Virus record (IMG/VR): IMGVR_UViG_2529293039_000014
Reading direction: 5' to 3' (one strand)
Length of the DNA stretch: 20,633 bases
From: a virus
Taxonomy: Duplodnaviria > Heunggongvirae > Uroviricota > Caudoviricetes
In this document: positions 6,001 through 9,000 of the stretch, piece after piece
Numbering within the stretch: the first letter of the stretch is position 1
How the letters are laid out: each line of letters starts with the position of its first letter
Position numbers: made by a program

Positions 6001-9000
6001 AGCACTACCAGCGGATGTTCCGTAGGCAATGCCAGTAGAGATTTTGTCCATTGATTTCATAGCAACGCCTCCGCCAGTAACGGATTGCGTAGTTCTTATA
6101 TTGGGAAGGGGAAAAAAGAAGGCCGCAGCGTAACTATCACTAATAAATTCAGGACAGCCAGTGGCTACGGCTCAGTTTGGGTTGTGGCGGCCGGAATCGA
6201 ACCGGCTTCCATCGGTGCGCTGCCGATTGCAGTACGCGCGGCGGTCAGCTATATGACTAGTATTTTCACTATCGCCTATCTGCTAGCTCGCCATTGAGCT
6301 TCACCACAACGATAAGAGCACTGCGCGGCACCTTTCACCAATTCCGCGAGGTCTGCGGGTTCAATGCTCTTACCTGTTGTGCAGAAAAAAAACCACACGG
6401 CAGCGAGTTTAAGCTGTGTGGCGAAGTTACCTCTCTTCACCAAGTATTCGGTAATAAAATAACTTGTGGTGTTCTCGTTTTTATGCCGATAAAATAAACG
6501 GTCCACTTTCAAATGGAGCGATTCATGATTTTTCTCAGAACTGAAAACGGCATCGAGAAACTTGAAAACTGGGAGGAAATTATATCCAGACCAAACTTTG
6601 TCACCACTATAGACAAAGGAGTTCAACAACTTGAGGAGATAATTGGTTACTACAAATTTAAAGAAGAAATCCACTGTGGTCTAACTGGTTGCAACCAACC
6701 ACATCAAATGGGTTATATTGTAAAAACATCTAGTGGCATTGAAACCAACATCGGAAATAAATGTGGTAAAAACGAATTTGGTGTGGAATTTGGTGAAAAC
6801 GTTCTTAGTTTCAATAAATTTATGCAACTCGAAACCAATCGGGAAATTATTAGCACCGCAAAAAGTAAATGTGAAGCGTGGCAAAAAAATATTGAAACGA
6901 TACGAAATATCAAACCCACAATAGATTATCTATCTTCTACCATCGAAAATAGTAAAAATTCCAATTACTCCGGAAGACTTGGTGCTACAGAAATTCGTTT
7001 TTTGACCAAGAACCAGACAGGCCTTGTAACCCTTTCTGAAGTGGAAACTGATAAGAATACCAAAACAATTCTGTTCGCAATGAATGAACACATGCGCGAG
7101 TCTGGAGAGGCAATAAGTGAATTCTACATAGGAAAAGTATCATTTAGTCATGTTCTTTTACCAGAAAACAATCTTCGTGATTTTTTTGTTGCGCTCAAAG
7201 AAGATCTAAAAAAAATTCAGTGTATTGATCTACAAACAGCCCCAAGCCCAGAAATTTCTAATGTTGCCAAAATTGCCAGTTCAATCGAAGAACGAATCAA
7301 GCGATTAAAAAAACTGAAACATGAAGCCAGTAAATTCCTAACTAAAAAAAATCTGCGTCCCATCGCAAACAAAATAAAATACTCATCGACAGCGGATGAA
7401 CTTGAATTCCATAATTTCGAACGCTTTTTAAAAGGGCTGAAATGATAAAAGCCCCGAAAGGGGCTTCTATCAAAATCATTTACGCATTATTCCGCATGCT
7501 TAAAAGAATACATGACAGATTCGGACAAAATCAAGTGCAATGTCGCAAAAACCCTAAGCTTAGTTCACATCATCACCAAAACTTGTCACATTCTGAAAAG
7601 CAATATCGGCCTTACGCTCTTCCTGGTGGCAAATGTCAACCAGAGAATCAAGAAACGGCTTCCAATTACGCGTCCATGTCCTGACATGTAGCTCGGGTAT
7701 CCGCTTCAGTACAACTTTATATACTGTGGTAGACGGTACCGTGGAAAATCCATTTCCGCTGCAACGTTCGCAGATTTTAAACACTGGCACACCACGCTCG
7801 CTTGTGGCTTTGCGGTCCAGTACCTCTCCCTTTCCACCACAACGACACCTGGCACTTATCACTCCCTTCCCTTTACATACATCGCAAACGACTGGTACAA
7901 CTTCCGTTACCTCTGTCCATTTCTCCCAGTCTGACGGTCGAACAGCACGGGAGCGACTGGCCCAATATGGTGCTTTACCCCATGGGTATGAAACCTTACG
8001 AATGACCTGCTTACGGGGTGTTAGTCCGGTACCACTGCAACTATGGCATGTTACGCTGGTGTCCGCCGATCGGGAATACTCAGCAAAAGCAAACTGCGCC
8101 AGTACCAGCATACACCAGCCAAATTCACCACCAGCTGCTTTACGCACATTCTTCGGTGCAATTTCCATCGCGTGACGCGCCAGCGCTTGGACTGCCATCT
8201 GCTCATCAGTCTTGCTGATACCGGCCTTCCCGAAGAAGGCCGCCAAGCCAAACCGTTCACGATTGCTGGTGGTACCAATAGCCGCCATAACATCGGTGCC
8301 TGTAAGACGTTCCGGAGAGGTTCCTTTCACATCGTCGCCGATATACATTCCCTGAGGACTGAAGTATTTTAGCGATGCCTCAAGCTTCATTATTCACACT
8401 CCCCAACCAGATTAAGAATAACCGCCGCGCCATTGTCTTTCATATATTCGCCCTTTCCGCTTGCCAAAAACCAACGACACACCTCCACTGCTTCAGCCCG
8501 TGTCACCGGTTTGATGGTCATCAGCAATTTTTCAAGGTAGCGCTCGCGGTCATATACCGATTCGTGATGCTCAGAGTAACCATACTCATCGCCCTGTTCT
8601 TTAGACGCAGTGTGGCGAACACTGTAGAGCCAGTCCCAGTAAACAAACTCACGAACTACGTCTGACAATGTATGAGGCTCTGGCAGTACATCACGATAGC
8701 CATCAACATATGCACGACGCTGATCATCAATTTCATTCATACGGATGCCATCAATTCTGCCCGCTGTCTTCTCGGCTGCAGTCCAGCCCCAGAGATGATC
8801 GTCGATAAATTTCTGGGAAGACTTGATCACTCGCTCGGCTTCCACATCTTCGAGTGCTGCTTCATAGCTACCAAACGTAGCCCTGACTGATGTTGCTTTT
8901 TTGATATTCTCCCGGGCGATCCTGATTGCCTGTGCCGGGTTATCCATGCCGATGGTACCGAAAGCAATCTGGAAAGGATCACCACCATTCGCCAGCAGAT

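Follow-up and report, generated by a model that had tools for sequence, protein, structure and literature searches.

We analysed a 20,633-nucleotide (nt) stretch of virus DNA (Caudoviricetes; IMG/VR record IMGVR_UViG_2529293039_000014; the whole stretch is hereafter the window), in which an open reading frame (ORF) of 276 amino acids (aa) stands in the position of the antitermination gene Q of phage lambda (7560-8390, minus strand, ATG start; hereafter the Q ORF). The Q ORF is very probably an ordinary, correctly annotated late-gene antiterminator of the Q-lambda family, in the long form found in phage phi80 and with its own target site, that is, the late-gene switch of a lambdoid Escherichia coli prophage. 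The gene has the replication/nin region on one side and the lysis genes on the other, with a helicase, a primase and a 285-aa ORF upstream and a class II holin, a lysozyme and Rz downstream (4884-6060, minus strand; PF04971, PF00959 and PF03245); the latter are the late genes under the proposed control of the cassette.

Family and predicted fold of the Q protein

Profile and structure comparisons of the Q ORF converged on lambda Q. The Pfam family PF03589 (‘Antitermination protein Q’) matched at 175.3 bits (E = 2.6e-52; curated cutoff, 26.7), phrog_127 (‘anti-termination protein Q-like’) matched over the full length (E = 3e-98), and the PDB sequence match was lambda Q itself (7ubm_Q; E = 2e-35). 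PF03589 defines the Q-lambda family, one of three Q families that are unrelated to each other (PMC9388147). An AlphaFold2 (AF2) model of the Q ORF, built on 127 homologues (mean pLDDT, 84), has the predicted fold of lambda Q, namely a helical body with a helix-turn-helix (HTH) and a zinc-ribbon arm. Its top PDB match in Foldseek was 7ubn_Q, lambda Q in the NusA-containing engaged loading complex (E = 1e-12; TM 0.84, target-normalised); ranks 2-8 were lambda Q each time, and DnaJA2 appeared only at E ~3. The two proteins thus share their Pfam family, a four-helix body with HTH, a zinc-ribbon arm and the N-terminal nozzle segment (lambda Q structures: PDB 4MO1 and 7UBJ-7UBN). The N-terminal ~60 residues of the Q ORF (8211-8390, minus strand) are conserved relative to lambda Q residues 1-60, in blocks such as LxGTDVMAAxG and FGxAAFxGK. 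In lambda Q, the N-terminal segment refolds with NusA and forms a nozzle at the RNA exit channel (PMC9388147); by analogy, the same function would fall to this segment of the Q ORF.

The gene and its family are already known, and the public annotation is correct. An NCBI protein that is 100% identical to the Q ORF, ‘prophage antitermination protein [Escherichia coli]’, is present on 80 contigs, and RefSeq E. coli genomes label the gene ‘antitermination protein’. The closest phage copy is that of the Stx2f phage phi467 (CUW01236; 98.9% identical), and a 276-aa Q of Pfam 03589 has been mentioned for Stx2f prophages of Escherichia albertii (PMC10673567). The Q protein of phi80 (gp17, YP_007947979; our statements on phi80 Q rest on the GenBank annotation and our own alignment) belongs to the same length class (269 aa versus 276 aa) and has the same four cysteine motifs, including a third motif of the CRC type, and the same insert (KVSYPWGKxPYW...SRAVRPSDWExW), although it is only 41-42% identical to the Q ORF overall.

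Cysteine motifs and the zinc arm

A first-pass annotation, made from the sequence alone, had described a 276-aa protein in the Q position with four CxxCxGxG repeats, and had called this pattern better known from DnaJ-type zinc fingers than from lambda Q. The protein and its four motifs were readily confirmed, all within an expanded zinc ‘arm’ (residues 112-215; 7746-8057, minus strand, as for each motif) that is delimited by the alignment with lambda Q and the AF2 model: motif 1, CHSCSGTG (C115 and C118; 8025-8048); motif 2, CDVCKGKG (C169 and C172; 7863-7886); motif 3, CRCGGKG (C182 and C184; 7827-7847); and motif 4, CERCSGNG (C207 and C210; 7749-7772). All eight cysteines are invariant in an alignment of 127 diverse long-form homologues and the motifs are therefore not due to chance; the four cysteine pairs are also kept in every full-length protein among 240 homologues from two database searches. 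The motif count needs amendment at one point, as motifs 1, 2 and 4 are of the CxxCxGxG type but motif 3 is CxCxGxG, with ‘CRC’ in nearly all long-form homologues. Nor is the pattern foreign to lambda Q, which has two CxxCxGxG motifs of its own (CRDCHGTG and CGRCKGVG). These form the zinc-ribbon arm of lambda Q (residues 114-152), which touches the Q-binding element (QBE), sigma region 4 and the beta' zinc-binding domain. Both MAFFT and HMMER pair ARCR-CGGKG of the Q ORF with ARCRDCHGTG of lambda Q, and the four zinc ligands of the lambda arm align to invariant cysteines of motif 3 (C118 and C121 to C182 and C184) and motif 4 (C144 and C147 to C207 and C210).

Compared with lambda Q (207 aa, one ribbon), the Q ORF adds motifs 1 and 2 with a long beta-hairpin between them. 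The HMMER alignment to lambda Q falls into two pieces (residues 1-123 and 179-268 of the Q ORF) and therefore places about 55-67 extra residues in the arm. In the AF2 model, motifs 1 and 2 are separated by a beta-hairpin of 12 + 12 residues (123-134 and 157-168) whose strands pair together, and a lambda-like hairpin with a helix lies between motifs 3 and 4. Short-form relatives have just two of the motifs, 3 (often CRC or CRDC) and 4, with the ~25-residue spacing of lambda Q; in the long forms, motifs 2 and 3 are nearly always 13 residues apart, motifs 3 and 4 ~25, and motifs 1 and 2 a variable 14 to >100. Given the retention of motifs 3 and 4 in the short forms, the near-fixed spacings and the strand pairing in the model, the most likely arrangement of the four motifs is a tandem of two zinc ribbons (1 + 2 and 3 + 4) rather than the nested one of DnaJ (1 + 4 and 2 + 3). 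In such a structure, motifs 3 and 4 most likely represent the lambda Q ribbon, and motifs 1 and 2 would clamp the base of the extra 45-residue beta-hairpin. The DnaJ cysteine-rich domain (PF00684) and anti-TRAP resemble the arm in their repeated CxxCxGxG zinc knuckles, with weak profile and structural similarity, and differ in that the Pfam match is below cutoff, no J domain is present, motif 3 is CxC and the strand pattern points to side-by-side ribbons.

The suggestion of an unusual Q-family antiterminator was thus right as to family and wrong as to rarity, given the same motifs and insert in phi80. The long form is carried by 133 of the 250 matching phage records (matches over ≥80% of the query in one piece), including phi80, mEp237, SPN3UB, SE1Spa and Stx2c phages, and among full-length representatives of 50%-identity clusters, at least four cysteine pairs were found in 32 of 66 and two pairs in 16 of 66. 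The insert itself is mosaic: residues 123-168 (7887-8024, minus strand) are swapped for a shorter, unrelated hairpin in phages ENT39118 and KPP5665-2, the Q proteins of which are 78-82% identical to the Q ORF in their N-terminal regions (ENT39118, 82%), and this replacement is a case of recombination inside the gene. We propose tentatively, and with the balance of probability against it, that the extra piece of the arm (motif 1, the 45-residue beta-hairpin with YPWGKAPYW...SRAVRPSDWExW, and motif 2) is a second zinc ribbon and an exchangeable module that could add a contact, absent from lambda Q, to RNA polymerase, sigma or DNA. If so, long-form Q might, for example, load with another geometry or depend on NusA to a different degree.

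Predicted promoter, spacer and terminator downstream of Q

A generic promoter and terminator scan missed both the promoter and the hairpin downstream of the Q ORF, and we therefore compared the sequence 3' of the Q stop codon with that of relatives (80 related viral-contig loci and annotated phages; 64 distinct sequences with the module). The 64 distinct relatives have in common a −35 hexamer, a bipartite spacer, a −10 hexamer and an early transcribed block, with flanks that are not conserved. In the window, the predicted promoter is located 26-55 nt past the Q stop codon (all elements on the minus strand) and comprises a pR'-type −35 hexamer TTGATT (7529-7534), the 18-nt spacer TTGTCCGAATCTGTCATG (7511-7528), which is the candidate QBE, and a −10 hexamer TATTCT (7505-7510). 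The −35 hexamer is nearly invariant in the relatives as TTGAYT (1.9-2.0 bits at five positions; the fifth position is a two-way choice between C and T), and TAnnCT is conserved 18 nt after it. Further upstream, a T-rich block, TTTTGCG (7544-7550; ~−53 to −47; 1.8-2.0 bits), is a possible UP-like element. The predicted start (+1 at ~7497; consensus R, then TG) opens a conserved early transcribed segment, ATGCGGAATAATGCG (7483-7497), in which conservation is 1.0-1.9 bits at +2 T, +3 G and positions +9 to +15 (1.0-1.4 within the +9 to +15 block), as against 0.2-0.5 bits beyond. Candidate sigma-dependent pause elements in this segment are AATAAT (7486-7491) and TAATGC (7484-7489). A search of the early transcribed region for a single −10-like hexamer (A at position 2, T at position 6) common to all relatives found no register that fits. 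No CII-type TTGC-N6-TTGC site (a PaQ-like antisense promoter) was found across the window, and a permissive Rfam scan of 5800-8600 had no credible match to the leader (E ~0.9 for Thr_leader and PK-repBA).

Conservation within the spacer is bipartite: TTG is followed by four bases that differ by class (TCCG or CATA), then by AA, two freely varying bases and TGTC, with 1.8-2.0 bits in the invariant blocks; in the window, TCCG lies at 7522-7525 and TGTC at 7514-7517. This layout fits the binding mode of lambda Q, a monomer on a 13-bp asymmetric site of which the HTH contacts positions 1-4 and the arm positions 11-13. The relatives fall into two spacer classes, class A (TTGTCCGAA; 46 loci, 40 distinct proteins) and class B (TTGCATAAA; 37 loci, 28 distinct proteins), and just 7 of the 278 columns of the protein alignment have residues that are disjoint between them (T221, K225, V236, R237, T238, T240 and C254 in the Q ORF). 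All seven fall within residues 221-254, in the two helices (AF2, 220-228 and 236-269) of the predicted HTH (residues ~220-245; 7656-7733, minus strand). Such co-variation supports the spacer as the QBE, and supports the view that the predicted HTH reads it. In the phi80 record, a pR' is likewise annotated, with a Q site at the corresponding point of its spacer and a first terminator ~+46 to +74 from the start, all at positions that match those described here; the site itself differs (TCGCGGA in phi80 versus TTGTCCGAA..TGTC here).

Beyond the start, a proximal intrinsic terminator of the tR' type is predicted at 7443-7472 (minus strand; 13-bp stem, UUUC loop, U tract to ~7441). Its core, GAAGCCCC-UUUC-GGGGCUUU, occupies 7448-7467, is followed by UUUUAUCAUUU and is extendable to 7443-7472. 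The extended stem begins ~88 nt beyond the Q stop codon (7560-7562), which agrees with the first-pass annotation of a hairpin about 90 nt past the stop. For the putative leader (60 nt), the folding energy is −25.2 kcal/mol (z = −5.4), a value equalled by none of 200 shuffles; the generic scan did not list this hairpin, presumably because its U tract is interrupted. As had also been anticipated, the terminated leader would be short, at ~52-57 nt; that of lambda ends ~190 nt past its −10, versus ~55 nt here. So close a terminator is not unusual: of 56 distinct relatives, 53 have a hairpin with a T tract (start at +21 to +38, median +33; end at +46 to +61, median +56), and a short leader is therefore the norm for this branch of the family. 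In phi467, the terminator is 100% conserved, the 125 nt that follow the Q stop codon (promoter, spacer, early segment and terminator) are identical, and the same reverse ORF comes next. A putative promoter just past the gene, with the candidate QBE between −35 and −10 and a predicted intrinsic terminator ahead of the late genes, reproduces the order of lambda (Q gene, pR', QBE and tR').

The reverse ORF, a convergent gene of 310 aa (6513-7445, plus strand; phrog_7003, E = 2e-110), separates the Q cassette from the lysis genes, and its stop adjoins the terminator stem. The hairpin at 7443-7472 could accordingly serve mainly to terminate this gene, with a distal hairpin and T8 run at 6385-6422 (minus strand) as the real tR', an alternative that we consider rather improbable. 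It is favoured by the position of the stop codon (7443-7445) at the stem edge, by A/U flanks on both sides of the stem, as bidirectional terminators have, and by ENT39118, in which a reverse gene also lies just past the hairpin. In addition, the distal hairpin is placed where tR' is in lambda, and the 25 nt that follow its T8 run (TCTGCACAACAGGTAAGAGCATTGA; 6361-6385, minus strand) are identical to the sequence directly after lambda tR'. However, the plus-strand sequence after the proximal hairpin, UUCUAUCAAAAUC, makes a poor U tract, and the distal hairpin is the weaker of the two (z = −1.9). Moreover, the proximal terminator stands at the same distance from the promoter in the 53 of 56 relatives, including those in which the next gene is co-directional (for example, KPP5665-2). 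The two roles are not mutually exclusive, and the hairpin, taken here as a Q-controlled tR', may also terminate the 310-aa ORF.

Proposed late-gene switch and its setting

Our evidence on the cassette consists of homology to lambda Q, a predicted fold, a conserved DNA module and protein–DNA co-variation; from these we infer an active promoter, a pause, Q loading and read-through, as well as the zinc stoichiometry. By homology to lambda Q, RNA polymerase would initiate constitutively from the −35 and −10 hexamers at ~7497 and, without Q, would halt at the 7443-7472 hairpin and release an RNA of ~52-57 nt. Once Q is made, its HTH would bind the upstream half of the spacer and its zinc arm the downstream TGTC, and Q would load onto polymerase that has paused in the early transcribed region. 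The N-terminal segment would then close around the RNA exit channel such that terminator hairpins could not form, and transcription would pass the terminator, cross the 310-aa ORF antisense, as the convergent position of that ORF requires of late transcripts, and reach the genes for holin, lysozyme and Rz. In phi467, a near-identical phage, late transcription would also enter stx2f.

Several points weigh against this reading. The promoter is a modest match (8/12, missed at the 9/12 threshold of the generic scan), and the +9 to +15 block (TAAYGCC-like) is without T at the final position of a −10-like hexamer in most relatives. The co-varying HTH columns are encoded just ~40-170 bp from the promoter, and linkage could explain part of the co-variation. 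The pairing of the zinc motifs is based on secondary structure and comparative logic. Finally, the prophage looks defective, and the cassette may be without consequence in this host.

The last point leads to an alternative that we rate as improbable, and marginally more so than a main role of the hairpin in terminating the 310-aa gene: the cassette may be a silent relic, in which Q is intact by sequence and has no role since the prophage is defective. An IS66-family element (1-2586, plus strand; three ORFs: HTH_Tnp_1, TnpB_IS66 and DDE IS66 transposase) abuts a large-terminase (GpA ATPase) ORF that is cut to 295 aa (2613-3500, minus strand), and the stx and tRNA cargo of phi467 is absent from the window; the prophage is probably packaging-defective. 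Yet the Q ORF is identical to the protein on the 80 contigs, the promoter and terminator are identical to those of phi467, and the downstream lysis genes are intact; this alternative, moreover, bears on the biological relevance of the Q ORF and not on its identity as an antiterminator. It is highly improbable that a DnaJ-type zinc-finger (chaperone-like) protein or another late regulator merely occupies the Q position, since the Q ORF is homologous to lambda Q over its full length in both sequence and predicted fold, lambda Q itself has the CxxCxGxG motif, Pfam and NCBIfam scans found no J domain or DnaJ C-terminal domain in the Q ORF, and matches to DnaJ models are confined to residues 164-215 (PF00684, 25.8 bits against a cutoff of 32.7, residues 169-215 only; in NCBIfam, sub-threshold DnaJ models only). 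The ‘different late regulator’ of the first-pass annotation was rejected on the same full-length homology to lambda Q.

The neighbouring ORFs on either side of the cassette are of unknown function. The 310-aa ORF gave no match in Pfam, NCBIfam or PADLOC scans; its counterpart in phi467 is split by annotation into two overlapping ORFs, suggestive of a frameshift in that phage. The 285-aa ORF between primase and Q (8390-9247, minus strand; phrog_6204, no Pfam match) gave only a weak PbeC match in PADLOC (E = 0.0015, 15 bits). Its stop overlaps the start of the Q ORF as a TAATG junction, by which the two are translationally coupled; the ORF is conserved at this place in phi467 and ENT39118, and KPP5665-2 has a shorter HTH-domain protein instead.

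Two segments of the window are co-linear with phi467 (L001 in our set): one extends from Q to 6386, at 99% identity, and the other from 6107 across the lysis genes, at 93%. Between these points, a 2.5-kb segment of phi467 (L001 8006-10502; stx2fA, stx2fB, tRNA-Thr and tRNA-Gly) is replaced in the window by an unrelated 278 bp (6108-6385); the window is a stx-free relative of phi467 with an ‘empty’ cargo site. Homology to phi467 ends exactly at the T run of the distal hairpin, which thus marks a mosaic junction. Within the 278 bp, a tRNA-like 3' fragment (GCCGGTTCGATTCCGGC plus acceptor strand; 6179-6237, minus strand) was matched in Rfam as a partial tmRNA (20 bits versus a gathering cutoff of 47; E = 1.6e-5), and ARAGORN called no tRNA genes in the window. 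The fragment may be a remnant of a phage tRNA cluster or an ssrA-related sequence.

As a discovery, the finding matters little, since public databases already label the gene correctly and its family is a textbook one. No structure of a long-form Q or of its added zinc ribbon has been solved, and this second ribbon, together with the regulatory module defined here by comparison, is modestly new. The two spacer classes and the matching Q residues (221, 225, 236-238, 240 and 254) are a candidate recognition code for Q-lambda-type proteins, and these natural classes with their seven protein positions offer a ready-made specificity-swap system for DNA reading by such proteins. In phi467, the identical promoter, candidate QBE and terminator stand ~1.5 kb upstream of stx2fA, and the module is therefore probably the control point for Stx2f production in that phage. 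A study of Stx2f prophages in E. albertii reported that no pR' or qut was found upstream of stx2f (PMC10673567); the module described here would be the site that it was unable to locate.

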